Made by a program: the position numbers and the translations under genes
Assembly (NCBI GenBank): GCA_964557005.1
Contig: CAZKYI010000002.1
Coordinates: forward strand, 129,526-193,525
Direction of reading: 5' to 3'
Length of the DNA: 64,000 bases
Source of the DNA: an uncultured Pseudomonadales bacterium
GTDB lineage: Bacteria; Pseudomonadota; Gammaproteobacteria; Pseudomonadales; JBECKS01
Part shown: positions 9,716 to 64,000 of the stretch, piece after piece
Position numbering within the stretch: the first letter of the stretch is position 1
Layout: every line of letters begins with the position of its first letter
The notes under the pieces: generated by a model
Databases searched by the model: none
What the model was told of the DNA's origin: nothing
Seen by the model: the letters and a program-made list of their open reading frames with translations, nothing else

Positions 9716-10621
9716 ATGAATTCAACACCCTTGCTGACAGTGATTAAGAAACGTGTCGATACACTTCATCCGCATATTTGGGATTTTGTGGAACTGGTTC
9801 GGCTCGATAAGCCGATTGGCATTCTGTTATTACTTTGGCCAACTGCGTGGGCTTTGTGGATTGCAGGTGATGGCCAGCCGGGCATGCGCCTGTGTGCGAT
9901 ATTTTTTGCAGGTGTGGTTTTGATGCGTTGTGCAGGCTGTGCCATCAATGATTTTGCAGATCGCCATTTTGACGGCAGGGTAAAACGAACACAACAACGA
10001 CCTTTGGTGACAGGGCGTATGCGTGCCTGGGAAGCGTTGGCTTGTGCAGCAGGTTTGACCGTAGTTGCCTTCATTCTGGTTTTGCAGGTCAACATGCTCA
10101 CGGTGTATTGGTCGATGGGAGCGCTGGTTATTGCAAGTATTTATCCTTTTATGAAGCGTTACACGCATTTGCCGCAGGTGGTATTGGGTTGCGCGTTTGC
10201 GTGGTCGGTACCGATGGCGTTTAGTGCCTTGCAGGAAAAAGTGACTGATGAAGCATGGTTAATTTACACGGCGACAGTTTTCTGGACGATTGCCTACGAC
10301 ACCATGTATGCGATGGTTGATCGGGAAGATGATTTGAAAGCAGGCATTAAATCGACCGCGATTTTGTTTGGCGAAGCTGATAAATGGATAATTGGTCTGT
10401 TACAACTTTGTGTTGTCATCAGCCTGATTTTGCTGGCACAAAAACTGGTGTTATCCGTATATTTTTATGCTGCACTGGCAGTGGGCACTTTATTTTTTAT
10501 CTATCAGCAATGGTTGATTAAAGATAGAGATGAGGCTCAGTGTTTCAAGGCGTTTAAAAATAATCACTGGTTTGGGCTGTGTATTTTCGCAGGCATATTT
10601 TTTCACTATCAATTCAGTTGA
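9716..10621 (+). CDS. ubiA: 4-hydroxybenzoate octaprenyltransferase
   Basis: VRLDKPIGILLLLWPTAWALW and NDFADRHFDG are UbiA prenyltransferase Asp-rich motifs, as is YDTMYAMVDREDD. The ATG at 9716 is 20 nt after the ubiC stop. Confidence 0.9.
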   Translation: MNSTPLLTVIKKRVDTLHPHIWDFVELVRLDKPIGILLLLWPTAWALWIAGDGQPGMRLCAIFFAGVVLMRCAGCAINDFADRHFDGRVKRTQQRPLVTGRMRAWEALACAAGLTVVAFILVLQVNMLTVYWSMGALVIASIYPFMKRYTHLPQVVLGCAFAWSVPMAFSALQEKVTDEAWLIYTATVFWTIAYDTMYAMVDREDDLKAGIKSTAILFGEADKWIIGLLQLCVVISLILLAQKLVLSVYFYAALAVGTLFFIYQQWLIKDRDEAQCFKAFKNNHWFGLCIFAGIFFHYQFS

Positions 10622-10624
10622 TGT

Positions 10625-11164
10625 ATGTTGATTCGCATTTTTGACATGTTACAAAAAATCAGTGAGCAGCTTGGAAAAAGCGTGAGCTATTTGTTACTGA
10701 TTATGACTTTGGTGAGTTTTACCATTGTTGTTATCCGCTATGTTTTTAGTACCGGCTCCATCGCTCTGCAGGAATCCATCACCTACTTTCACGCTACCGT
10801 GTTTATTCTGATGGCTGCGTTTACCTTGCAAAAAAATGGTCATGTTCGTGTTGATATTTTTTATCAAAACATGAATCAAAAACAAAAAGCGTGGGTAGAT
10901 ATTTTCGGTTCGGTATTTTTATTGATTCCCTTTTGCATATTCAGTTTCTGGATTTCACTTCCTTATGTTCAGCGTTCGTGGGCGATTGCAGAAAAGTCGG
11001 CAGATGCTGGAGGTATTCCGGCAGTTTTTCTGCTTAAAAGTTTGATTCTTGTATTGGCGATTATTTTGCTTGTGCAAGCGGCGACTGAAATTCTGAAAAA
11101 TATTCTGATGCTGCAAAACAGATTCAAGGCATCTGATAAAACTGACAATCAGGGAGTGATGTAG
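10625..11164 (+). CDS. TRAP transporter small permease (DctQ-like)
   Basis: About 180 aa with four hydrophobic segments. It immediately precedes and abuts the DctM-type large permease. Confidence 0.85.
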   Translation: MLIRIFDMLQKISEQLGKSVSYLLLIMTLVSFTIVVIRYVFSTGSIALQESITYFHATVFILMAAFTLQKNGHVRVDIFYQNMNQKQKAWVDIFGSVFLLIPFCIFSFWISLPYVQRSWAIAEKSADAGGIPAVFLLKSLILVLAIILLVQAATEILKNILMLQNRFKASDKTDNQGVM

Positions 11165-12531
11165 TGGAGTTTATACCTTTTCTTCTGTTTCTCTCTGTCT
11201 GCATGGTGTTGATGTTAGGGTATCCGGTTGCTTTTTCTCTGGCTGGAACTGCGCTGGCTTTTGCAGGATTTGGTGTGCTGTTTGATGTTTTTGATGTGAG
11301 TTTTTTAAGTGCTTTTCCAAGCCGTGTGTTCGGTATTTTAACCAACCAGACACTGATTGCTGTGCCCTTGTTTGTGTTTATGGGCGTGGTTCTTGAACGC
11401 TCTCGCATAGCAGAAGATTTATTGGAAACCATGACCAAACTGTTTGGAAGATTTCGTGGTGGATTGGCCATTTCAGTGACGCTGGTGGGAGCGCTATTGG
11501 CAGCCAGCACAGGCATTGTTGGTGCAACCGTTGTGACCATGGGCTTGATGTCTTTGCCTACCATGTTGAAGCGTTCTTATAAACCGGAATTTGCAGCGGG
11601 TGTGATTTGTGCAACCGGTACGCTCGGGCAAATTATTCCACCCTCCATTGTTTTGATTTTGTTAGCGGATGTTTTATCCAGCGCTTACCAACAGGCGCAG
11701 TTAAATATGGGAAGTTTTACACCAAAAACGGTGTCGGTGGGTGATTTGTTTCTGGGTGCTTTTTTGCCAGGGCTGCTGCTGGTTGTTCTGTATCTTGTCT
11801 ACATTGTGCTTTATGCCTGGCTAAGACCGCAGGATGCACCAGTGATTCAGGCTGACGATGAAGATGATCCCTTGTGGCCAGATGTTATTAAAAGCCTTTT
11901 GCCGCCCTTGGTGCTGATTGTACTGGTGTTAGGTTCCATTATTGGTGGTTTTGCCACGCCAACAGAGGCCGCTTCTGTCGGCGCTTGTGGTGCCTTGTTT
12001 TTGGCCTTGCTCAAACGACAACTCTCGTTTCCTGTGCTTAAAGATATTCTGCAATCTGCCGGTCAGGTGACCAGCATGGTGTTTATGATACTGATAGGTG
12101 CAGCCCTGTTTTCCATTGTTTTCAGAGCCTATGGTGGTGATGAAATTATTCGCGAGTTTTTTGAATCGATGCCCGGTGGTGTTTTTACGGCCTGTCTGCT
12201 GGTTATGCTGGTTATTTTTCTTTTGGGATTCATTCTCGATTTTATAGAAATAACCTTTGTGGTGATTCCTATTGTGGCACCGATTTTACTGATGATGGGT
12301 GTTGATCCTGTGTGGCTGGGTATCATGATTGCAATCAATTTGCAGACTTCATTTCTGACTCCGCCTTTTGGTTTTGCCTTGTTTTATTTGAGAGGCGTGG
12401 CACCACCTGAACTGGACACACGGCAAATTTATATGGGTGCCGTGCCTTTTATTATCATTCAGTTGTTAACTCTGGGTCTGGTTGCAGGTTTTCCTGCCAT
12501 TGCTACCTGGTTACCTGCTGTATTAAAGTAG
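11164..12531 (+). CDS. TRAP transporter large permease (DctM-like)
   Basis: 455 aa and polytopic. Typical DctM stretches are GYPVAFSLAG, ATGTLGQIIPPS and FGFALFYLRG. Confidence 0.9.
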   Translation: MEFIPFLLFLSVCMVLMLGYPVAFSLAGTALAFAGFGVLFDVFDVSFLSAFPSRVFGILTNQTLIAVPLFVFMGVVLERSRIAEDLLETMTKLFGRFRGGLAISVTLVGALLAASTGIVGATVVTMGLMSLPTMLKRSYKPEFAAGVICATGTLGQIIPPSIVLILLADVLSSAYQQAQLNMGSFTPKTVSVGDLFLGAFLPGLLLVVLYLVYIVLYAWLRPQDAPVIQADDEDDPLWPDVIKSLLPPLVLIVLVLGSIIGGFATPTEAASVGACGALFLALLKRQLSFPVLKDILQSAGQVTSMVFMILIGAALFSIVFRAYGGDEIIREFFESMPGGVFTACLLVMLVIFLLGFILDFIEITFVVIPIVAPILLMMGVDPVWLGIMIAINLQTSFLTPPFGFALFYLRGVAPPELDTRQIYMGAVPFIIIQLLTLGLVAGFPAIATWLPAVLK

Positions 12532-12553
12532 ACAATCGAAGAGGGACAGCTCC

Positions 12554-12949
12554 ATGAATAAATCCAGTGATACATCTGCTCCGCATGGAGAGCTTTGTCT
12601 GAAAATTATTGCTTCTGCGAATGATGCAAACACCATGGGCGATATTTACGCAGGGTGGATTGTTTCGCAGGCCGATCTTGCAGGTTCACTCTTTGCCGAA
12701 CGGCGAGCCTTGGGGCGGGTTGCTACGGTGTCGATTGAATCCATGTCTTTTTTGGCACCTGTCAAACTCGGCAGTACCGTGAGTTTTTATTGTGATTTCA
12801 TCAATATCGGGCGTAGCTCGCTGCAAGTCCATGTGGCTGTGTGGGCGAGTGAAGCCGGTTCTTATGACATGAGAAAAGTGACCGATGGGCAGCTCACATT
12901 TGTAGCGATTGATAAAAATGGAAGAACACGAGCGCTTCCCCAGCGCTAA
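12554..12949 (+). CDS. acyl-CoA thioesterase, hotdog fold (YciA-like)
   Basis: NTMGDIYAGWIVSQADLAG...ATVSIESMSFLAPVKLG is a 4HBT/YciA-like pattern. Confidence 0.75.
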   Translation: MNKSSDTSAPHGELCLKIIASANDANTMGDIYAGWIVSQADLAGSLFAERRALGRVATVSIESMSFLAPVKLGSTVSFYCDFINIGRSSLQVHVAVWASEAGSYDMRKVTDGQLTFVAIDKNGRTRALPQR

Positions 12950-13092
12950 AAAATTTCTGAAAGGATTATTCACTTTCGTCATACCCACAATAACACTTAT
13001 AAATTGTATTTATTAAGTCTGATTCCCTAGTATGCCCGCCAGTGAATGCCATTGCGGCATTTTGTTTTCATCTCTTTTGCAGGTAGATCGTT

Positions 13093-14685
13093 ATGTCTAA
13101 TTACCAATCAGAAATTGCTGCGCTGACTTCTACTGTCCGTGCGAACAAAACCTGGGATGCTATTAATCCTGAATATGCAGCACGTATGCGTATTCAAAAT
13201 CGTTTTAAAACAGGGCTGGATATTGCGCGATACACGGCTGACATCATGCGTAAAGACATGGCACGTTATGATGCGGATAGCGCTCAGTACACACAGTCAC
13301 TCGGTTGCTGGCATGGTTTTATCGGTCAGCAAAAAATGATTTCCATCAAAAAGCATTTCAATAGTACAGACCGACGTTACCTCTACCTTTCAGGCTGGAT
13401 GGTTGCAGCATTACGCTCTGACTTTGGTCCTTTGCCTGATCAAAGCATGCACGAGAAAACTTCGGTAGCCGCTTTGATTGAAGAGCTTTATACCTTCCTG
13501 AGACAAGCAGATGCGAGAGAGTTGGGTGGCTTGTTTCGTGCACTGGATGCAGCACGTGAAGCGGGAAATGCTGCACAGGAAAAAGAAATACAGGCAAAGA
13601 TTGATAATTTCCAGACCCATGTTGTGCCTATTATTGCCGACATTGATGCGGGTTTTGGTAATGCCGAAGCGACTTATTTGCTGGCCAAGAAAATGATTGA
13701 AGCGGGTGCTTGTTGTATCCAGATTGAAAATCAGGTATCTGACGAAAAACAATGTGGTCATCAGGACGGTAAGGTAACCGTTCCACATGAAGATTTTCTT
13801 GCGAAGATTCGTGCGGTTCGTTATGCCTTCCTCGAACTGGGCGTTGATAACGGTGTGATTGTTGCGCGTACCGATTCTTTGGGCGCAGGTTTAACCAAGC
13901 AAATCGCAGTGACCCACAAGCCAGGCGATTTGGGTGACCAGTACAATGCTTTCCTGGATTGTGAAGAAGTCTCTCCACAGAACATGAATAACGGTGACGT
14001 AGTGATTAACCGTGGTGGCAAATTATTGCGACCCAGGCGTTTACCCAGCAATTTGTTCCAGTTCAAAAAGGGAACAGGTGAAGCACGTTGCGTGCTCGAC
14101 TGTATTACTTCCCTGCAAAATGGTGCAGATTTGCTCTGGATTGAAACCGAAAAACCTCATGTGGGTCAGATTGGTGGCATGGTGAATGAAATCCGTAAAG
14201 TGATTCCAAATGCCAAACTGGTTTACAACAACAGCCCTTCATTCAACTGGACCTTGAATTTCCGCCAACAGGTATTCGATGCCTGGCAACAACAAGGCAA
14301 GGATGTATCGGCTTACAAACGTGATAATTTAATGAGCGCAGAATATGACAGCACTGATTTGGGCGTTGAGGCAGATCGCCGTATTCAAACTTTTCAGGCC
14401 GATGCAGCGCGTGAAGCAGGTATTTTCCATCATTTGATTACCTTGCCTACTTATCACACAGCGGCACTGTCAACCGATAATCTGGCAAAAGAGTATTTTG
14501 GTGCACAAGGCATGCTGGGCTATGTCAAAAATGTTCAACGTCAGGAAATCCGTCAGGGTATTGCCTGCGTTAAACATCAAAATATGGCGGGTTCAGATAT
14601 GGGTGATGATCACAAGGAATACTTCTCTGGAGAGGCTGCACTGAAGGCAGCAGGGAAAGACAACACCATGCATCAGTTTGGCTAG
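13093..14685 (+). CDS. aceA: isocitrate lyase, long ~530-aa type
   Basis: Catalytic KQCGH loop (SDEKQCGHQDGK), ADIDAGFGN, and a Pseudomonas-like N-terminus. Confidence 0.95.
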   Translation: MSNYQSEIAALTSTVRANKTWDAINPEYAARMRIQNRFKTGLDIARYTADIMRKDMARYDADSAQYTQSLGCWHGFIGQQKMISIKKHFNSTDRRYLYLSGWMVAALRSDFGPLPDQSMHEKTSVAALIEELYTFLRQADARELGGLFRALDAAREAGNAAQEKEIQAKIDNFQTHVVPIIADIDAGFGNAEATYLLAKKMIEAGACCIQIENQVSDEKQCGHQDGKVTVPHEDFLAKIRAVRYAFLELGVDNGVIVARTDSLGAGLTKQIAVTHKPGDLGDQYNAFLDCEEVSPQNMNNGDVVINRGGKLLRPRRLPSNLFQFKKGTGEARCVLDCITSLQNGADLLWIETEKPHVGQIGGMVNEIRKVIPNAKLVYNNSPSFNWTLNFRQQVFDAWQQQGKDVSAYKRDNLMSAEYDSTDLGVEADRRIQTFQADAAREAGIFHHLITLPTYHTAALSTDNLAKEYFGAQGMLGYVKNVQRQEIRQGIACVKHQNMAGSDMGDDHKEYFSGEAALKAAGKDNTMHQFG

Positions 14686-14721
14686 CACCCGATAGAGTTA
14701 GAACCAGTTGAAGTCAATTTT

Positions 14722-14752
14722 AAAAAAGAGTCGCAAATGCGGCTCTTTTTTT
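14722..14752 (+). terminator. rho-independent terminator after aceA
   Basis: Stem AAAGAGTCGC/GCGGCTCTTT with an AAAT loop, followed by a T-run at 14746-14752. Confidence 0.7.
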
Positions 14753-14794
14753 ATATACAGGAACTTTCAAACCTGAAACACAGAGGGAAGGTAT

Positions 14795-15223
14795 ATGCGA
14801 ATTTTAATCAGCTTATTGATGATGTCTTTGGCATTAACAGCGTGTGAGCAAAAATCTGGCCGCCCTGCAAAAAGCCATGCGGAGCTATTACAGAATCAGG
14901 TGGTGCACGTCAAAACAGAATTGGCAAACTACCGTACCAGAAGAGCCGAAGCGCCCAGAATCTTGCCTGCCGATTTTTCTGAAATCACAGATGAAGAACG
15001 GATGCTTATGAATGAACAAAGAATTCAGTTTCAGGCAGAAAAACACATACTGACGATGAATTTATACAGGCTCAGGGAAGAAGTTTCCATGCAGATCAGT
15101 ATTGCTACAGAGCAGGGAGAAAAAAGCGGATTGGCAGAACTGAAAGCGACCAGGGATGAAATTGAATCCTTGATTAAAGAGCTTGATCCTGACGCAAAGT
15201 TGGCACCAGTTATGGATTATTAA
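14795..15223 (+). CDS. hypothetical lipoprotein
   Basis: Lipobox LALTAC at the end of the signal peptide MRILISLLMMSLALTAC. The rest is rich in charged residues. Confidence 0.5.
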   Translation: MRILISLLMMSLALTACEQKSGRPAKSHAELLQNQVVHVKTELANYRTRRAEAPRILPADFSEITDEERMLMNEQRIQFQAEKHILTMNLYRLREEVSMQISIATEQGEKSGLAELKATRDEIESLIKELDPDAKLAPVMDY

Positions 15224-15638
15224 GCTGGTTGGCGACTAACATACCAGTCAACATGGCTGCAACAAATACAAAGGAATGTATATCCAGTCCTGCCAGTGAA
15301 GCCAGTGCAGGGCCAGGGCAATAACCATACAAACCCCAGCCTGCACCAAAGATCATGGCACCAATAACAAGAGGCCTGTCGATGCGGGTTTTCGTCGGCA
15401 GGGAAAACTGTCCGGCTGAAACCGGTTTATCCTTTTTAAGAATGATGGCGTATCCGATAGACGTAATGATTAACGCGCTGCACATAACCAGCATAAGCGC
15501 AGGATTCCAGTCACCACTAATATCCAGAAATCCGAGCACAACTTGTGGATCGGTCATTCCTGAAAATGCCAACCCCAGGCCAAACAGCAAGCCTGCCAAT
15601 AAATACATTGTGGCGTTCACAAGCGCATTAAATGACAT
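15210..15638 (-). CDS. YeeE/YedE-family half-size membrane protein (sulfur-compound transport component)
   Basis: GLAFSGMTDPQVVLGFLD and GAGWGLYGYCPGPA motifs. It is paired with a second half-size gene. Confidence 0.75.
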   Translation of the reverse strand: MSFNALVNATMYLLAGLLFGLGLAFSGMTDPQVVLGFLDISGDWNPALMLVMCSALIITSIGYAIILKKDKPVSAGQFSLPTKTRIDRPLVIGAMIFGAGWGLYGYCPGPALASLAGLDIHSFVFVAAMLTGMLVANQLNNP

Positions 15639-16062
15639 GACGAATCGCTCCTGTAGCTAACATACCAAACAACATAAAAACAAAAGTTGCAGTCAGTGAT
15701 CTGAATGAAAAACGGCTAATGCCACAGACACCATGCCCGCTGGTGCAACCTGAACCCAGTTTGGTACCAAACCCGACCAGAAAGCCGCTGATGATTGCCA
15801 GAGGCATTGATGCGACAGGCGATGGAAATTCGGTTTTGGAAACCGAGTAATACAAGGCAGCACCGATAATCAAACCTGCAACAAACAGCCAGGAAAAAAT
15901 CGAAGAGCGTTCTCCTTTTATTTGTGCAAGTTGATTAACACCTGAAAATAATATGCCGGAAATTCCGGTTATCCGGCCAAAAAAAAGCATCATCACCAGA
16001 GCACTTGTGCCAATCAGTGCACCACCTAACAGGGCATTTATATATTCAGTCATTATTATCAC
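15628..16062 (-). CDS. YeeE/YedE-family half-size membrane protein
   Basis: GRITGISGI and GSGCTSGHGVCG, the conserved Cys loop of YeeE/YedE. Confidence 0.8.
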   Translation of the reverse strand: MIIMTEYINALLGGALIGTSALVMMLFFGRITGISGILFSGVNQLAQIKGERSSIFSWLFVAGLIIGAALYYSVSKTEFPSPVASMPLAIISGFLVGFGTKLGSGCTSGHGVCGISRFSFRSLTATFVFMLFGMLATGAIRHVI

Positions 16063-16763
16063 GCTTCCATTTTAATTTGGCCGCAGGCTTTGTTTGCCGG
16101 AACAGCAATATCAATAAATTTCGGGTTGGGTAACACAAGTTTTTTCATTTGTGCAACAAAGGCAGCTTTGTCTTTGCCAACGACTCTTGGATTGAATCGT
16201 TTTTCTTCCCCGATGGTGCTTACGTTTCGGCCTTTGTAATCATGTGCCGGATACACGAGTGTTGTATCAGGAAATGCAAATAGTTTTTGCAGACTGTCAA
16301 ATAAATTTTCTGCATTTCCATTCTGAAAATCGGTACGCCCCGTGCCTCTTGCGAACAGCGTATCGCCAGTGAATAAATAGAATTGCTGATTTTCCACCAG
16401 CAGAAAACTATAGGAATCGTCTGTATGGCCAGGTGTTGCGATGGCTTTGAGAGACAAGTCGCCAACTGTAATTATGTCATCATTCTTGAAAGTGTTTGAT
16501 GCACAGGCAACTTTTGATTCAACAGCGCTGAAAGTTTCACAGCCAAAAATCTCACGTAGTTTTCCTGCGCCGGTAATGTGATCAGCATGCACATGTGTTT
16601 CGAGAGATTTAACCAGTTTCAAATCAAACTCTTCGAGATATTGTTTAATGAGTTCAACTTGTGAAAGCACAGAATCAATAATCAAGGCTTGTCTGGTTTT
16701 TTCACACGCAATTAAATAACTGAAAGACCAGGTTTCGTAATCAAAAAGTTGTCTGAAAAACAT
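16059..16763 (-). CDS. MBL-fold persulfide dioxygenase (ETHE1/Blh-like)
   Basis: HVHADH metal motif, ATPGHTDDS, FTGDTLF..GTGRTDFQNG and YPAHDY. This is the ETHE1-type pattern. Confidence 0.8.
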   Translation of the reverse strand: MFFRQLFDYETWSFSYLIACEKTRQALIIDSVLSQVELIKQYLEEFDLKLVKSLETHVHADHITGAGKLREIFGCETFSAVESKVACASNTFKNDDIITVGDLSLKAIATPGHTDDSYSFLLVENQQFYLFTGDTLFARGTGRTDFQNGNAENLFDSLQKLFAFPDTTLVYPAHDYKGRNVSTIGEEKRFNPRVVGKDKAAFVAQMKKLVLPNPKFIDIAVPANKACGQIKMEA

Positions 16764-16778
16764 AAATTCACCCAAAAA

Positions 16779-17606
16779 TTAAAATAGCTGGAAATATCTC
16801 GCAAGCACAAGCCCCGAAAGCATAATCATGGTGACAGAGAATATTTTTTGCAGCGTAGCACCGACCAGATACTTGCCAAAAAATAACCCCGATAACATGC
16901 CAATCAAGCCGCCAAAACTGAGTTGAACAACGAGTTGATTGACAACAAAATTGCCCTGGAGAAAGTGTGCAAACAATGCACTCAGGCTCACAAAAGCAAT
17001 CACAGGCAAAGAAGTTGCCACCGCCTGCTGGATGGTAATGCCTGTCAGAAACATCAGTGTTGGCACAATGATGAAACCACCTCCCACGCCAAATAGCCCC
17101 GATAAAACACCTGTTAGACTGGCACCCACAAACATGCCTGCAAAACATCGTGGCCCAAACTGGAATTCCTGTTTGTGATTCATGCGACAGTAGGCACCAT
17201 TATTCTCTTCGAAATTTTTATATTGGGCACGGGCAACACTTGATTGTTCCGGTGTGGTGGTGGCTTGTTTCCACATGCGCCATGCCACATAAAAAACGAT
17301 GGCGGTAAAACCGCCTAACACCAACTCTGGCGCAAGCATCCTGTTAAAATAACCACCCAGCGGTGTAAATAAAGAACCGATGAGCATAAACATCAAAGCA
17401 GGAAGCCAGACAATTGATTTTCCACCAAGCCGTGTTACGGTGCCAAACAATGCACTTGTAGCGACAGCACTTAAGGCAACAACGGCTGCTTCTTTGGGGT
17501 CAAGCCCTAACAAAAGTATTAACAAGGGGAGGGCAAAAATTGACCCGCCAGCTCCGGTCAGACCAAGCACCAGACCGATAATGATTCCTGTAGCAAGTGC
17601 CAGCAT
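16779..17606 (-). CDS. TauE/SafE-family sulfite or anion exporter
   Basis: Polytopic 275-aa protein with repeated G(A)GGG(S)I(F) motifs (LTGAGGSIFALPLL and GLFGVGGGFIIVPTL). Confidence 0.8.
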   Translation of the reverse strand: MLALATGIIIGLVLGLTGAGGSIFALPLLILLLGLDPKEAAVVALSAVATSALFGTVTRLGGKSIVWLPALMFMLIGSLFTPLGGYFNRMLAPELVLGGFTAIVFYVAWRMWKQATTTPEQSSVARAQYKNFEENNGAYCRMNHKQEFQFGPRCFAGMFVGASLTGVLSGLFGVGGGFIIVPTLMFLTGITIQQAVATSLPVIAFVSLSALFAHFLQGNFVVNQLVVQLSFGGLIGMLSGLFFGKYLVGATLQKIFSVTMIMLSGLVLARYFQLF

Positions 17607-43982: not shown

Positions 43983-44061
43983 TGGTTTGTGTGTTCTACT
44001 AACGCCTGAATTAAGCCGCATCGAGAAGCGACATCGAATTGAATGAATTATTATTTTTTGT

Positions 44062-44095
44062 TTCTAACGTTGTCCGCAACATGGACTAGTTATAA
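44062..44095 (-). other. short attC-like imperfect hairpin closing the parDE unit
   Basis: On the minus strand: TTATAAC-TAGTCC-ATGTTGC-GGACAAC-GTTAGAA. The outer boxes pair 6/7, the inner stem is 5 bp, and one base is bulged. The parE TAA stop lies inside the TTATAAC box. Confidence 0.35.
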
Positions 44096-44377
44096 GTCTC
44101 TTTCAATTTCTTTGCCATGCCATAGCCGCAAAATGATTATTTCCTCTCTGGCAATAAAATAACGAATGGTGTAACTGCCAATAAATAAATCCCGAATGAG
44201 TTCCGGTTGTGGTGCCTTTAAAACTTGCAAACCCATTTTGGGAAATACTTTGAGTTTATCTATGCCAAGGAGCAGCTCTCTCGACACTCTTTGTGCTGCA
44301 ACTGGATTTTTGACTTCTATAAATTCACGAAGCCGATTCAAATCATCAATGGCTTCTGGCGTATACCTTATTTTCAT
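44090..44377 (-). CDS. parE: type II toxin, RelE/ParE superfamily (ParE-like)
   Basis: MKIRYTPEAIDDLNRLREFI...GSYTIRYFIAREEIIILRLWHGKE. A 4-nt overlap with the upstream antitoxin gene. Confidence 0.85.
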   Translation of the reverse strand: MKIRYTPEAIDDLNRLREFIEVKNPVAAQRVSRELLLGIDKLKVFPKMGLQVLKAPQPELIRDLFIGSYTIRYFIAREEIIILRLWHGKEIERDL

Positions 44378-44640
44378 ACTGAAGGGGGAGGCAACTCCTT
44401 GTCAGTGCCCCAACTTTGAAGCCATTCCGTAACTTTGGACTCGTTGACCAATTTGCCTGATTTGGCAGATTCCAGCGCAGCCAGAGTATCGTTCCAACGG
44501 CTATCTTCCATCAGTTGCCTGGCAATAAACTCTTTAACTGCTTGATTTATAAGATAGTTTTTACTTCTATCGAGTCGTTGAGCAAGACTTTCGAGAGGAG
44601 CTTCAATATCTTTAGAAATTCTGAGGCTGGTAATGCTCAT
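44374..44640 (-). CDS. parD: ribbon-helix-helix (CopG/ParD-type) antitoxin
   Basis: MSITSLRISKDIEAPLESLAQRLDRSKNYLINQAVKEFI is an RHH fold. It is coupled to the toxin gene. Confidence 0.8.
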   Translation of the reverse strand: MSITSLRISKDIEAPLESLAQRLDRSKNYLINQAVKEFIARQLMEDSRWNDTLAALESAKSGKLVNESKVTEWLQSWGTDKELPPPSV

Positions 44641-44706: not shown

Positions 44707-44775
44707 TTATAACGCCCACAACACCGGCAAACCGGAGCGAAGCGGAGGTTTGTCCGGTGCTTGTGATTGTTACGT
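44707..44775 (-). other. attC-like 69-nt imperfect palindrome closing the GIY-YIG unit
   Basis: On the minus strand: ACGTAAC...GTTATAA. The arms at 44714-44733 and 44747-44768 pair extensively, with two single-base bulges (44753 and 44760) and a 13-nt loop. The ORF's TAA stop lies inside ACGTAAC. Confidence 0.45.
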
Positions 44776-45510
44776 GTTGACTGGTACAAATTCACGCTCT
44801 ATTAGGTCGATAATAGAAGCTACCGTTTCGGTGCTAATGCTCATTACCTTTGCGCCGCCCTTCTTTCCCTGCTCTACGTCGAAGCCGTGCCCCTCAAGGA
44901 ATTCTTTGATGTCTTCATAGACATCTCTACTCCTTCCGATAGACAGATGATGCCTGCCGGACTTCCTCGCATTTACATAATATGTAAGTTGCTTGTCATC
45001 ACTAAAAAATGTGGGTCCGGCAATGCGTGAGCTTGATCTCAGAGGCTTTGTTAGCAAATCGGAAATTTCACCAAGTAGTATATGGTCAGATTTCTGCTTA
45101 TTTTCAACTTCTTTTTGAAGGACGCTCTGGGTGTAGGGATCGTTGCTTTGCTCGATTGGTAATTCTCTAGCGCCGATAAGCCCCATAATGGGTTGCATGC
45201 GCTCCACGAGCGTATCGTCCTTATCTAAGAACCACTCTCCCTCAATGCGACTATCATCTAGCAGCATATGCAGCGCGTTTTCGACGGCTCTGGCATCGCT
45301 ATGTTCCCAAGCGGCAATGCACTGGGCTTTTATGGGTGATTTTGTATTGCTTATCTGTTGTAGCCGAGAACTGAGGGTTGCATTGCCCGCGCCCGTTACA
45401 CCCACCTTTTTGTATGGGATATCAACATTCCCACCAATGTCTATGTGACGCATTACGTAGATCATATTCTGCATTAGCTAAATTAACTCCAAATTCTCCG
45501 AGACACGTAA
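44713..45510 (-). mobile_element. candidate integron-type gene cassette carrying the GIY-YIG gene
   Basis: On the minus strand G|TTACGT (45511-45505) lies 36 nt before the ATG. The same 7-mer is complemented by ACGTAAC (44775-44769) at the ORF end. The unit is 798 bp. Confidence 0.4.
44770..45474 (-). CDS. GIY-YIG superfamily (T5orf172/MUG113-like) domain protein with an uncharacterised C-terminal half
   Basis: The N-terminal IYVMRH..YKKVGVTG..LSSRLQQI..ENALHMLLDDSRIEGEWF fits the T5orf172 pattern. The C-terminal ~120 aa are unrecognised. Confidence 0.65.
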   Translation of the reverse strand: MQNMIYVMRHIDIGGNVDIPYKKVGVTGAGNATLSSRLQQISNTKSPIKAQCIAAWEHSDARAVENALHMLLDDSRIEGEWFLDKDDTLVERMQPIMGLIGARELPIEQSNDPYTQSVLQKEVENKQKSDHILLGEISDLLTKPLRSSSRIAGPTFFSDDKQLTYYVNARKSGRHHLSIGRSRDVYEDIKEFLEGHGFDVEQGKKGGAKVMSISTETVASIIDLIEREFVPVNT

Positions 45511-45519
45511 CAGTTTATT

Positions 45520-45548
45520 AAGCGGCCATGGCCGCTTTATTTTTTTTC
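45520..45548 (+). terminator. orphan plus-strand rho-independent terminator with no plus-strand gene upstream
   Basis: Perfect 18-nt palindrome AAGCGGCCATGGCCGCTT followed by TATTTTTTTT. It sits 8 nt from the cassette boundary. Confidence 0.55.
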
Positions 45549-60701: not shown

Positions 60702-61820
60702 ATGAAACGTCGTGATTTTGTCACCGCGCTCGGTGCAGGTGCAGCAGGTGCTGCGCTGGTTGCCTGTAGTCCACAAGCCAAAGAGTGTGCAGTTGATGCT
60801 ACAGGTTCGCAAACATCAGAGAAGAAACAAAAATTTTCTTTCAAGCTGGTCACGGCGTGGCCTAAAAATTTTCCGGGTTTGGGCATGGCACCGGAGCATT
60901 TGGCCAAAACCGTTAAAGCCATGAGCAATGGCCGTTTGGAAATCAAGGTCTATGGTGACGGAGAGTTAGTACCCGCCTTTGAAGTGTTTGATGCTGTTTC
61001 AAGCGGTGCTGCCGACATGGGGCATGCAGGTTCTTATTATTGGGCGGGAAAAATTGCGGCCTCACAATTTTTCACTGCCATGCCTTTTGGATTAACCGCA
61101 CAGGAAATCAATTCATGGATTAACTACGGGGGTGGTCAGGCCTTGTGGGAAGAGCTGTATGCGCCGTTTAATTTAATTCCACGCCAGGGAGGAAATACCG
61201 GTGTGCAAATGGCGGGTTGGTTTAACAAAGAGATCAACTCGCTCGCCGATATTAAAGGCTTGAAAATGCGCATTCCCGGTTTGGGTGGAAAAGTATTTCA
61301 GCGCGCAGGTGGTGTTCCGGTAACTTTGCCAGGTGGTGAACTCTATACCTCCATGCAAACAGGGGTTATTGATGCAACCGAATGGGTAGGCCCTTATAAC
61401 GATATGGCGTTTGGTTTCCATGAAGTTGCCAAATATTATTACTATCCGGGCTGGCAAGAGCCTGGCGCGATGCTGGAATTCACCATTAACAAAAGTAAAT
61501 ATGAAGCCTTGCCTGATGACTTGAAAGCCATTCTCGATATTGCCTGTCAGGAAACCAATCAGAATATGTTGAATGAATATACCGCAAGAAATAATCAGGC
61601 ACTTAAAACACTGGTGGAAAAACACAAGGTTCAGTTGCGCAAACTGCCTGACGATGTGTTGAAAAAACTTAAAGAAATTTCGGAAGAAATCGTTAAAGAA
61701 CAAGCGCAGGAAAATGATTTGATTAAACGCATTTACACATCGGCGAAAGCATTTACCGAACAAGCCAGAAGTTACCATTTGATTTCCGAGCTTGCGTATT
61801 TGCAGGCGCGCGAACTTTAG
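60702..61820 (+). CDS. TRAP transporter substrate-binding protein (DctP family) with a Tat-type signal
   Basis: MKRRDFVTALGAGAAGAAL is a twin-arginine leader. FKLVTAWPKNFPG and VGPYND are typical of the DctP-type 'mannitol/chloroaromatic' subgroup. Confidence 0.85.
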   Translation: MKRRDFVTALGAGAAGAALVACSPQAKECAVDATGSQTSEKKQKFSFKLVTAWPKNFPGLGMAPEHLAKTVKAMSNGRLEIKVYGDGELVPAFEVFDAVSSGAADMGHAGSYYWAGKIAASQFFTAMPFGLTAQEINSWINYGGGQALWEELYAPFNLIPRQGGNTGVQMAGWFNKEINSLADIKGLKMRIPGLGGKVFQRAGGVPVTLPGGELYTSMQTGVIDATEWVGPYNDMAFGFHEVAKYYYYPGWQEPGAMLEFTINKSKYEALPDDLKAILDIACQETNQNMLNEYTARNNQALKTLVEKHKVQLRKLPDDVLKKLKEISEEIVKEQAQENDLIKRIYTSAKAFTEQARSYHLISELAYLQAREL

Positions 61821-61894: not shown

Positions 61895-62176
61895 ATGTTT
61901 AAAGTGAATGAATATTTCGATGGCAAAGTAAAATCGATTGCTTTTCAGGGCGAACAACTGCCTGCAACTGTCGGTGTGATGGCTGCAGGGGAGTACACCT
62001 TTGATACATCAAAGCATGAAACCATCACCATTATCAGTGGTGCTTTAACGGTAAAATTACCCAATGCTTCTGAATGGCAAACCTTCAAGGCGGGTGACCG
62101 TTTTGAAGTAGCCGCCAATAAACTTTTTGATTTAAAAGTCAAAACTGATACTGCCTATCTGTGCACCTACGCTTAA
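61895..62176 (+). CDS. ppnP: pyrimidine/purine nucleoside phosphorylase PpnP (DUF1255)
   Basis: [17 protein letters not shown], and 93 aa. Confidence 0.9.
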
Positions 62177-62185
62177 GGAGCCGCT

Positions 62186-62668
62186 ATGAAAGTGTCTAAC
62201 AACACCGTCGTCAGTTTTCACTATGAATTGAGTGAAGCAGGGAAAGCAATAGAAAGCTCGCGCGATAGAAGCCCTGTGCTGAGTTTAATCGGGCAGGGTG
62301 GGCTGATTGTTGGCCTTGAAAAGGCTTTGCTCGATAAAACAGCCGGAGAAACTTTTGAAGTGAGTGTGCCGCCTGAAGAAGGCTATGGTGAATATGTTGA
62401 GCGTGAGTTGATGCGTGTGCCTATCAAGCACTTGTTAGGCTCACCTAAAAAAGTCAAACCCGGACAGGTGGTTTATGTGAACACCCAGCAAGGCCAGCGT
62501 TCTGCGGTGGCGGTAAAAGTCGGCAAGTTCAATGTTGATGTCGATACTAATCATCCTTTTGCGGGAAAAACGCTCGATTTCAAAATTGAAATTCTGGATG
62601 TGCGCGAAGCGACTCAGGAAGAAATGGCGCATGGTCATGCACATGGTGCGGGTGGGCATCATCACTAG
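62186..62668 (+). CDS. slyD: FKBP-type peptidyl-prolyl isomerase SlyD
   Basis: VVSFHYEL..., an IF-domain insertion, HPFAGKTLDF and a His-rich tail HGHAHGAGGHHH. Confidence 0.9.
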   Translation: MKVSNNTVVSFHYELSEAGKAIESSRDRSPVLSLIGQGGLIVGLEKALLDKTAGETFEVSVPPEEGYGEYVERELMRVPIKHLLGSPKKVKPGQVVYVNTQQGQRSAVAVKVGKFNVDVDTNHPFAGKTLDFKIEILDVREATQEEMAHGHAHGAGGHHH

Positions 62669-62814
62669 ATGATTGAGGAATTGCAGATGCAATTTGTCGT
62701 AGAACCTGTTGGCTATGGCGCGAGGCACGTCTAAATGATCCGTCTGGCAATGTAATCTGCCTGTTCTGGGCAGGCGACAATCGCAAGAATCCTCCTTGGC
62801 GAGTTACTGCCTAA
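62669..62814 (+). pseudogene. 5'-truncated, frameshifted remnant of a VOC (glyoxalase/bleomycin-resistance fold) family gene
   Basis: Frame A reads ..QFVVEPVGYGARHV then a stop at 62732. Frame -1 continues LNDPSGNVICLFWAG... to a TAA at 62812. Together these resemble the C-terminal E.P...G.R......DP.GN.I.L motif of VOC proteins. Confidence 0.4.
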
Positions 62815-62858
62815 CAAGGACAACCAAAGGAAACTGCATTGATGTTGAAGCATTATGC
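62809..62858 (+). other. attC-like site following the VOC remnant; weak fold
   Basis: It starts with a perfect RYYYAAC box, GCCTAAC, which contains the remnant's TAA. It ends ATTATGC. The outer boxes pair 5/7 and there is only a 4-bp inner stem (CAAC/GTTG). Confidence 0.25.
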
Positions 62859-62883
62859 GAAAGTTGTATCTAGTTCGAAGTCA

Positions 62884-62911
62884 TTGACATACCATAATTG
62901 ATATATATATT
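62884..62911 (+). promoter_or_regulatory. sigma70-type promoter of the toxin-antitoxin pair, implying a near-leaderless transcript
   Basis: TTGACA (62884-62889), a 16-nt spacer, then TATATT (62906-62911). The ATG at 62921 is only ~10 nt downstream and has no SD. Confidence 0.45.
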
Positions 62912-62920
62912 CATTATAGT

Positions 62921-63205
62921 ATGTGGATTATCTATGAACACAGGCGAGTAGCCAAAAGCCTTTCTTCAGCACCCCTTGAAGTACAAAAGCGGTATGAGAA
63001 GTGGAAAGACATTATTTTTGTTTCGGGCCCTCAAGGCCTTAGAAAAATCAAGGGGTTATTACGTGACGAATCATTATCCGGCGAATGGGCGGGTCATAGA
63101 TCATCAAGATTAAACTTGCAGTATCGGGTCATTTATAAGGTGGAAAAGGATAAGGTTTTGGTTCAGGTAGAAAACGTTACGCCCCACGACTATCGGAGGA
63201 AATAA
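62921..63205 (+). CDS. RelE/ParE-superfamily mRNA-interferase-type toxin in a toxin-first, HigB-like arrangement
   Basis: MWIIYEHRRVAKSL...SGEWAGHRSSRLNLQYRVIYKVEKDKVLVQVENVTPHDY. It is followed 1 nt later by an Xre-type antitoxin gene. Confidence 0.75.
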   Translation: MWIIYEHRRVAKSLSSAPLEVQKRYEKWKDIIFVSGPQGLRKIKGLLRDESLSGEWAGHRSSRLNLQYRVIYKVEKDKVLVQVENVTPHDYRRK

Positions 63206-63206
63206 C

Positions 63207-63467
63207 ATGAGCGAATATAAAAAAGCAGAGCGGTTGGTTGAGCTTTCTGTTGGGGAATCGGTAAGAATTTTGAGAGAGCTTCAGGAGCTTAGCCAGAATG
63301 AGCTGGCCGAAATTTCTGGGATCCCCCAATCAACAATTTCGGCCATTGAAAACGACAGAATCCAGCTTGGAGTAGAGCGTGCTAAGACTCTCGCGAGAGC
63401 ATTGCGCTGCCATCCTGCTGTGCTTGTGTTCCCTAGTTGGGACATCGAACATGAATCAGCCGCATAA
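63207..63467 (+). CDS. Xre-family HTH antitoxin (HigA-like)
   Basis: LRELQELSQNELAEISGIPQSTISAIENDR is an HTH_3 motif. The protein is 86 aa. Confidence 0.8.
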   Translation: MSEYKKAERLVELSVGESVRILRELQELSQNELAEISGIPQSTISAIENDRIQLGVERAKTLARALRCHPAVLVFPSWDIEHESAA

Positions 63468-63520
63468 CAAGGCAGAATATGCGAATATCTGGCAAGGCCA
63501 GTATTAGCTTGTTGTTATCA
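63462..63520 (+). other. attC-like 59-nt imperfect palindrome closing the toxin-antitoxin unit
   Basis: GCATAAC (containing the antitoxin's TAA) ... GTTATCA. ATAAC/GTTAT pairs perfectly, followed by AAG/CTT with a 3-nt bulge and an AATA/TATT stem. The 59-nt length is close to minimal known attC sizes. Confidence 0.35.
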
Positions 63521-63626
63521 AGAGCATGCTTTGTGTCATTTCAGAAAAAGCAGGAATCCAAGATGAATTACGAAATCAATTCTAGTAAGCCCGACAAACT
63601 GATTTGATAATTTAGGAAGCGTAGTC

Positions 63627-64000
63627 GTGTTTTTCACAGACGAGCGAGGCCAGTTTTTCAAGCCTCTCACAGGTAAATACAGAGAGCAGGTGGCAGAATG
63701 CCTGCGCCTGTTGCATGAACGCCTGTACAGCAGCAAAGCTGACTATGGTGAATCACTAAAACGTGAGCAGGTTTTGGATATTTTCATTGAAGCCCTTGAG
63801 CGCGCTCCTCTTTTGGAAGGTGATGATGAAGGCGGGCGGTTTCAATCCAACCGTGAGCAAGCCTCATGGATTCTTAATAACCTAGTTGAACATGGTTGGC
63901 TCAAACGCGATAAAGATGATGCATCTTTCCAATCTACCTATCCTTTTAGCCGAACAGGCCGTCTGTTTACCCAAACACTGACCGATATAGATGGTAGCAG
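63627..64000 (+). CDS. hypothetical protein, N-terminal 124 codons only, running off the window; possibly a winged-helix-type first subunit of a multi-gene system
   Basis: GTG at 63627 with AGGAAG 7 nt upstream. The frame stays open to nt 64000: VFFTDERGQFFKPLTGKYREQVAECLRLLHERLY...REQASWILNNLVEHGWLKRDKDDASFQSTYPFSRTGRLF. It is not in the ORF track because it is unterminated. Confidence 0.5.
   Translation, partial: MFFTDERGQFFKPLTGKYREQVAECLRLLHERLYSSKADYGESLKREQVLDIFIEALERAPLLEGDDEGGRFQSNREQASWILNNLVEHGWLKRDKDDASFQSTYPFSRTGRLFTQTLTDIDGS

Follow-up and report, generated by a model that had tools for sequence, protein, structure and literature searches.

Chromosomal integrons are known to contain toxin–antitoxin (TA) cassettes equipped with promoters of their own, and the superintegron of Vibrio cholerae holds cassettes of the higBA and relBE types. 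The role of TA cassettes in chromosomal integrons has also been discussed (PMC11023631). Gene cassettes occur away from any integron integrase as well, either as clusters of attC sites (CALINs) or as single attC sites (SALINs) (PMC4889954; PMC9024848; bioRxiv 10.1101/2022.09.11.507474). RefSeq counts stand at 2961 CALINs and 3400 SALINs, and the insertion of cassettes at genomic attG sites outside integrons has been demonstrated experimentally (bioRxiv 10.1101/2022.09.11.507474).

Here, we analyzed a locus in a 64,000-nt stretch of contig CAZKYI010000002.1 from an uncultured Pseudomonadales bacterium (the window). Downstream of a slyD-like gene, positions 62669-63520 hold the remnant of a VOC-family gene followed by a toxin-first TA unit. 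This segment most probably represents the remains of a two-cassette integron array fragment of the CALIN/SALIN type, stranded between slyD and an fkpA-like gene beside a Wadjet defence system. The initial annotation of the window had read it as a cassette-derived VOC stub plus a self-promoted, toxin-first TA unit with no integrase nearby, and this core reading was borne out by the relatives of the TA unit, which were found in cassette arrays and in an integron.

Cassette ancestry and predicted function of the toxin-antitoxin unit

The ancestry of the TA unit was evaluated in homologous loci fetched for comparison, which are cited here by number. In L083, L085, and L103, the unit belongs to a run of small genes that share one strand and have classical attC sites between them, and in L083 and L085 it is placed inside long one-directional cassette arrays. 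In L089, it is found within ~3 kb of such a cassette run, and further arrays holding TA relatives include L106, L132, and others. A covariance model built from attC sites (R1) gave 111 matches in loci with TA relatives, every one of them (111/111) on the TA strand, and a significant attC abuts the TA unit in 16 of 41 homologous loci. Moreover, the metagenome contig L141 encodes an integron integrase (TIGR02249, 313 bits vs. a cut-off of 265) that faces away from the TA unit, and the TA unit occupies the first cassette position behind an attI-like AAAG/TTAGGC, the slash marking the boundary (features at 539-1174 on the minus strand and 2133-2411 on the plus strand). L141 is a complete integron front end with the TA family as its first cassette.

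The window and these relatives are homologous from TTATGCG to just past GCATAA(C). Homologous TA units read GC-G/TTATGC at the left boundary; an exact GTTATGC was found 16-44 nt 5' of the -35 box in 20 of 46 distinct upstream flanks, for a chance expectation of 0.003 per flank, and GCATAAC closes 25 of the 45 distinct units. In L085, TTATGT opens the adjacent cassettes, and the TA cassette opens with TTATGC, the complement of its own R'' box. Because these boundaries recur across homologous units, the complementarity between TTATGC and GCATAA is an inherited cassette signature and not a coincidence. The initial annotation had pointed out this 6-mer, with the reservation that a chance match was not negligible, and had proposed G/TTATGC as the left boundary and GCATAAC as the opening of the attC on the right; the relatives have the same complementarity and the same boundaries. 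In addition, every motif that it had listed was present in its place, including TTATGC (62853-62858), GCATAAC with the antitoxin TAA (63462-63468), and GTTATCA (63514-63520). Judged by these sequence relationships, the window TA unit is a cassette by descent.

These boundaries also bear on a different explanation, namely that the unit is an ordinary chromosomal TA system, or forms a defence islet with Wadjet, and arrived on another mobile element or through homologous recombination. Its motifs would then be baggage or chance, and the region 63462-63520 would be a transcription-end or regulatory hairpin. Many TA relatives do lack attC sites and lie next to unrelated genes, as in L087 and L089, and the window unit stands directly 5' of a defence operon. 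However, the left boundary agrees, to the exact base, with the G/TTATGC start of 20 of 46 relatives, and no other fetched TA locus carries Wadjet. We consider this explanation improbable, and the cassette ancestry remains the preferred interpretation of the unit.

The unit is a predicted type II TA system with a toxin of the RelE/StbE superfamily and a helix-turn-helix (HTH) antitoxin, in higBA-like order (Table 1). The toxin scored 28.4 bits against the NCBIfam RelE/StbE model, passing the cut-off of 27.9, and its Pfam YafQ/YoeB matches were weak. It has more than 4600 relatives, nearly all of 93 aa, with ~80-89% identity, and some of the close ones carry the HigB-like domain PF05015. All invariant residues are present in the window toxin, together with one extra Leu, and the length of the antitoxin is the same in its relatives. 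Thus, the RelE-like toxin and Xre antitoxin of the initial annotation were recovered as two intact open reading frames (ORFs), with a toxin score above the TIGR02385 cut-off and a clear HTH_3 match for the antitoxin.

The near-leaderless promoter described initially, TTGACA-16-TATATT, was likewise found, and all aligned relatives keep it at a conserved distance from the ATG. Because the -10 box ends 9 nt 5' of the toxin ATG, the toxin mRNA would be near-leaderless. The toxin stop codon and the antitoxin ATG are separated by a 1-nt gap, and a GGAGG (63195-63199) inside the end of the toxin gene lies 7 nt 5' of the antitoxin ATG. Furthermore, a 19-nt inverted repeat with arms at 62887-62905 and 62906-62924 spans the -35 edge, the -10 box, and the start codon, and its outer arms (ACATAC..GTATGT) are invariant in relatives. 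This arrangement suggested that toxin translation from the near-leaderless mRNA may be weak and antitoxin translation strong, and that the unit may repress itself via the inverted repeat, a putative operator for the Xre antitoxin. The TA module is probably live.

The toxin is unlisted in the public gene call of the contig (L174 9463-10000), and the protein collection contains the antitoxin but no exact copy of the toxin sequence. The likely reason for the omission is that the ORF has no ribosome-binding site. Since the toxin looks intact, this is probably an annotation gap, and the comparison flags for annotation a probably functional toxin gene that was skipped.

Table 1. Features of the locus, with window coordinates.
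Feature	Position (strand)	Basis or remark
DctP-type binding protein gene	60702-61820	
ppnP	61895-62176	
slyD-like FKBP isomerase gene	62186-62668	
Pseudogene stub, last ~48 codons of a 126-aa VOC/glyoxalase-family gene	62669..62814 (+)	homology to L172/P0121
Decayed attC of the VOC cassette: R'' GCCTAAC (with stop codon), R' ATTATGC	62809..62858 (+)	R2 11.5 bits, E 1.1
TA gene cassette by descent, TTATGC to G of the closing R' box	62853..63514 (+)	homology with cassette-borne relatives
Sigma-70-type promoter TTGACA-16-TATATT	62884..62911 (+)	11/12 match
19-nt inverted repeat (ACATACCATAATTGATATA / TATATTCATTATAGTATGT)	62887..62924 (+)	84% complementary
RelE/StbE (HigB-like) toxin, 94 aa, intact, without Shine-Dalgarno	62921..63205 (+)	TIGR02385
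Xre/HTH_3 antitoxin, 86 aa	63207..63467 (+)	PF01381, E 3.9e-15
attC-like element of the TA cassette, 59 nt: R'' GCATAAC (with stop codon), R' GTTATCA	63462..63520 (+)	R2 9.5 bits, E 3.8
jetA start (GTG at 63627), gene leaves the window	63627..64000 (+)	Pfam JetA, 8.9e-11

VOC gene remnant and attC candidates

In the remnant, positions 62710-62805, in the frame of 62671, translate to WLWREARLNDPSGNVICLFWAGDNRKNPPWRV, which is identical at 30/32 positions to the C-terminus of P0121, a protein on contig L172. A search of the protein collection with the remnant matched two partial proteins; Pfam returned nothing for the remnant peptide alone, and the VOC family was reached only via P0121. Extension of the P0121 frame to the end of the L172 contig gave an 88-aa fragment with similarity to the C-terminal end of the Pfam Glyoxalase model (E 0.0015, slightly below the cut-off) and also to VOC-fold PDB structures, such as the mitomycin-binding protein. 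The relatives listed for this fragment (1398) are mostly of 126 aa, carry PF00903, and are called VOC family protein by several sources. Because a length of 126 aa with PF00903 is typical of the relatives, the stub was taken as the last ~48 codons of such a gene. The 5' two-thirds of the gene are deleted, and the stub is flush with the slyD stop codon. By homology, the remnant belongs to the VOC (glyoxalase/bleomycin-resistance/dioxygenase) superfamily, in agreement with the frameshifted remnant of ~48 codons that had been recognized after slyD in the initial annotation.

The frameshift itself had been placed too far downstream. It was put near 62730, between GYGARHV and RLNDP, a position ruled out by the second-frame homology, which begins earlier, at WLWREARL. 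Upstream of WLW, the homology continues weakly in another frame (QFVVEPV vs. KFTQLPV), indicating a frame change near 62710 (~62708-62712), about 20 nt from the initial placement. The change looks like a ~10-nt deletion, PV[DER]WLW.

Two further observations were made among the VOC homologues. L173, a high-G+C contig, contains a second, independent C-terminal stub of the family at 549-695, comprising the last 49 residues and 80% identical to L172; its truncation point in the protein is almost that of the window stub, and it adjoins a 125-aa gene, unannotated and on the other strand. In addition, attC-like stretches lie 3' of intact VOC homologues (L175 3370-3440, L178 1143-1215, and L172 257-325; e.g. 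AATTCAGGCGATAGAC). They have GAT instead of GTT and a TGA stop codon where the window has TAA, and they went unscored by the model; they may represent a variant site class or decayed sites.

The attC candidates of the window were evaluated with a second covariance model (R2), rebuilt from the 111 R1 matches and run with filters off over a search space of 128 kb; R2 is a home-made model and not that of IntegronFinder. The initial annotation had proposed such a scan as a check on both of its cassette loci. The result was significant at the locus near 44 kb and below threshold at slyD, where the outcome is borderline.

The element between the VOC stub and the TA unit (62809-62858) ranked fourth among the window matches, with a full-length alignment whose ends are exactly those given in the initial annotation. 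Its GCCTAAC (62809-62815) is a perfect RYYYAAC box that contains the TAA of the remnant, as proposed. The crossover G that every training site has is replaced by A at 62852, the L box was aligned by the model with two non-standard pairs, and the element, which at 50 nt is shorter than the usual attC range of about 57-141 nt, folds no better than shuffles (z -0.2 to -0.55). The A before TTATGC and the poor fold had both been named as weaknesses from the start, and both proved real. We read the element as a dead, decayed attC. As a background, 84 kb of unrelated loci gave no match of at least 11.5 bits and two reaching 9.5.

The closing element (63462-63520) presents a different picture. Its GCATAAC has one deviation from R'', and in its GTTATCA, compared with the R' consensus G/TTRRRY, the GTT and the first R are correct and the last three positions are off; the boxes form five pairs, or seven counting the adjoining AA/TT. 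The GC that precedes GTT in 30/30 training sites is missing at 63512-63513. The chance of finding TTGTTAT at an allowed distance was 0.010. With the R boxes paired, the interior exceeded 996 of 1000 shuffles in stability (z -3.0), at an energy of -8.4 kcal/mol, vs. -8.6 for the genuine attC, also of 59 nt, that this cassette has in L085; the fold of the whole region had a z of only -1.9. For the L boxes, pairing by hand gave only C73-G07 and AATAT/GTATT, with a 2-nt bulge. The paired R boxes and the structured interior are thus kept and the consensus attC look is lost, and we regard the element as a probable atypical or decayed attC. An 8-nt tandem duplication (GAATATGC/GAATATCT) was observed inside it at 63475-63490; removal of one copy would yield a simpler, single hairpin.

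The same region also offers support for an ordinary chromosomal TA unit, as the attC scores are non-significant and the minimum-energy fold of 63462-63520 consists of two small hairpins, one of them G+C-rich (CTGGC-AAG-GCCAG). However, the terminator scan found none at 63462-63520, the element before the TA unit aligns end to end with the attC model, and a stop-codon-embedded box of the RYYYAAC type follows both ORFs, the VOC stub and the antitoxin.

The opposite possibility, that the cassettes are still mobile, would involve an integrase elsewhere in the genome and two working short attC sites under-scored by the models. Short attC sites are known in these arrays, for example one of 51 nt that follows the TA unit of L118, the fold of the closing element is as good as that of a genuine 59-nt attC, and the part of the genome covered is the window plus L174. 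This possibility is nevertheless very improbable: the conserved crossover G is A at 62852, the 62809-62858 element does not fold (z -0.55), the truncation and frameshift of the VOC cassette speak for neglect and not for turnover, and a search of the 64 kb gave no recombinase motif. Since the left-hand site is dead and no integrase was seen nearby, the cassettes most likely stay where they are, and both are probably immobile.

Several points weigh against a cassette origin and were considered together. Neither attC candidate is significant in R2 (E 1.1 and 3.8 in 128 kb), and genome-wide both would be invisible. The R2 alignment of 63462-63520 covers the R boxes only and scores equally on both strands, indicating that nothing but the palindromic R boxes is recognized by the model; an L box with extrahelical bases was not evident in this element, and its unconstrained fold is a branched pair of small hairpins and not one bulged stem. 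The models themselves were trained on arrays found via the same TA family, and one of the 30 seed sites of R1 (the aadA1 attC) was entered by hand. A recognizable attC is missing from about half of the homologous TA units, so that GCATAAC by itself proves little. No attC matches were obtained next to the VOC homologues in L172, L173, L175, L176, and L178, and the claim that the stub was a cassette therefore depends entirely on the GCCTAAC..TTATGC element. Accordingly, of the initial suggestion that VOC-fold and TA genes are both cassette cargo, the TA part was supported by relatives in arrays and the VOC part was not. Finally, the genome was covered over the 64 kb of the window and ~7.8 kb further downstream (L174), and an integrase is possible elsewhere. 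Because its attC candidates scored below significance in the model, we file the locus as cassette-derived by descent and not as a callable CALIN.

Genomic neighbourhood and a second cassette locus

Contig L174 extends the window downstream; the 10,000 bases of overlap that were compared are identical in the two. L174 contains a complete Wadjet system 3' of the TA unit (10421-17366; JetA 481 aa, JetB 233, JetC 1219, and JetD 375), followed on the opposite strand by an fkpA-like gene (FKBP_N/FKBP_C), a desaturase gene, and an enoyl-CoA hydratase gene, and then by mscL. The TA unit and Wadjet share the gap between the slyD-like and the fkpA-like gene, which Wadjet fills up to the latter. The 250 nt between the slyD-like gene and the toxin ORF contain no long ORF. 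A 16-nt inverted repeat just 5' of the jetA start (63566-63581 / 63597-63612; AATTACGAAATCAATT / AACTGATTTGATAATT, 81% complementary) may be a regulatory site for Wadjet.

No integrase was found among the genes called on L174, no tyrosine-recombinase box motifs were found in ORFs of at least 150 aa of the window, and no tRNA or tmRNA lies near the locus. Rfam at gathering thresholds returned nothing in the window, and the attC model found no site 3' of jetD on L174. When the three non-coding flanks were compared by BLAST with all fetched loci, the promoter region was the sole match, and neither 62669-62852 nor 63465-63626 had a second copy. SlyD relatives from a scan of genome contigs had at most 56% identity among the matches listed, and they were not syntenic: among these matches, an fkpA-like gene lay near slyD in 1/80 and ppnP directly upstream in 0/80.

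We also considered whether TA and Wadjet form a single travelling unit. This was ruled out, as jetA and jetD were absent from all other fetched TA loci; the two do not travel together. It is conceivable, although doubtful, that the slyD-fkpA gap served as a landing pad for cassettes inserted by an integrase at attG-type genomic sites outside integrons, and that the self-promoted TA unit with the leaderless toxin was then retained because it locks in Wadjet. If so, stray cassettes would help to seed and stabilize defence islands in genomes without an integron of their own.

The only significant R2 matches in the window belong to a second locus, at 44-45.5 kb, on the minus strand: 44707-44775 (24.5 bits, E 2.6e-4), which folds as a strong bulged hairpin (z -4.4), and 43997-44056 (19.0 bits, E 0.0085), which does not fold. 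With these significant attC sites and no tyrosine-recombinase motif in the window, the initial claim of integrase-less cassettes at two loci was upheld. The matches bound a ParE/RHH TA cassette and a GIY-YIG (T5orf172/MUG113) cassette (genes at 44090-44640 and 44770-45474, both on the minus strand), placed between yggU-like and TetR-like genes. The GIY-YIG cassette starts with TTACGT (45505-45511; ACGTAAC on the plus strand, G/TTACGT on the minus strand), the complement of its own R'' box ACGTAAC (44769-44775). Upstream of this start lies a terminator-like hairpin at 45520-45540 (AAGCGGCCATGGCCGCTT) and not an attC, a context that would agree with insertion at a genomic site outside integrons. 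The GIY-YIG protein falls in a ≥90% identity cluster with 45 members, whose reported sources are Colwellia, Halomonas, Alteromonas, Marichromatium, Pseudohongiellaceae, and Porticoccaceae, and this taxonomic spread implies recent horizontal transfer.

Proposed history and comparison with known systems

We propose the following history for the slyD locus. The first cassette would originally have carried a 126-aa VOC-family gene, from which a deletion took everything 5' of the last ~48 codons up to the slyD stop; a small deletion would then have broken the VOC frame, although this order of events is inferred. The attC of this cassette would have decayed, with its crossover G changed to A and its arms unpaired. 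The second cassette is a member of a very widespread cassette-borne RelE/StbE-Xre family that, unlike ordinary cassettes, has a strong promoter of its own. Its toxin would be poorly translated from the near-leaderless mRNA and its antitoxin well translated from the GGAGG inside the toxin gene end. The antitoxin would neutralize the toxin and repress the promoter through the inverted repeat over the -10 box and start codon. If the locus were lost, the toxin, as the more stable partner, would be set free, so that the unit may stabilize itself along with its neighbours, as is the case for the TA cassettes of chromosomal integrons.

The locus offers a worked example of relic cassettes that stay recognizable after their attC sites have decayed below detection, as the comparison of boundaries with cassette-borne relatives recovers what escapes the covariance model. 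It is a further case among the documented cassettes that lack an integrase, with a TA cassette beside Wadjet, and otherwise leaves the understanding of integrons and TA systems unchanged.

Compared with CALINs and SALINs, the window shares cassette-derived genes with attC-type ends and no integrase seen nearby, arrays of one or two cassettes at more than one locus, and the lack of flanking transposases. It differs in that its attC sites at slyD fall below model significance, and standard tool thresholds would probably miss the locus; moreover, a disabling G-to-A change sits at the crossover, and the first cassette is a truncated pseudogene. Like defence islands and integration hot spots between core genes, the locus has a TA unit and a complete Wadjet in one slyD-like/fkpA-like gap, whereas this islet has no integrase, transposase, or flanking direct repeats.

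With the classical attC sites (the aadA-type 59-base elements and the Vibrio cholerae repeats), the closing element has in common the 7-nt inverted R''/R' pair, the stop codon inside R'', the 59-nt length, spacers of 5 and 6 nt, and a cassette whose first six bases complement its own R''. In contrast to them, it shows no convincing L box or extrahelical bases, has no GC at 63512-63513, and adopts a branched fold.

Like higBA, the unit has a toxin that precedes the HTH antitoxin and a presumed stabilizing role, but the window toxin matches RelE/StbE (TIGR02385), and the HigB-like Pfam domain is found in only some relatives. In contrast to the TA cassettes of chromosomal integrons, the window unit lies outside any array, between a housekeeping gene and Wadjet. 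It resembles them in being a predicted type II system with its own promoter, a toxin of the RelE superfamily, and an attC-like element that starts at the stop codon.

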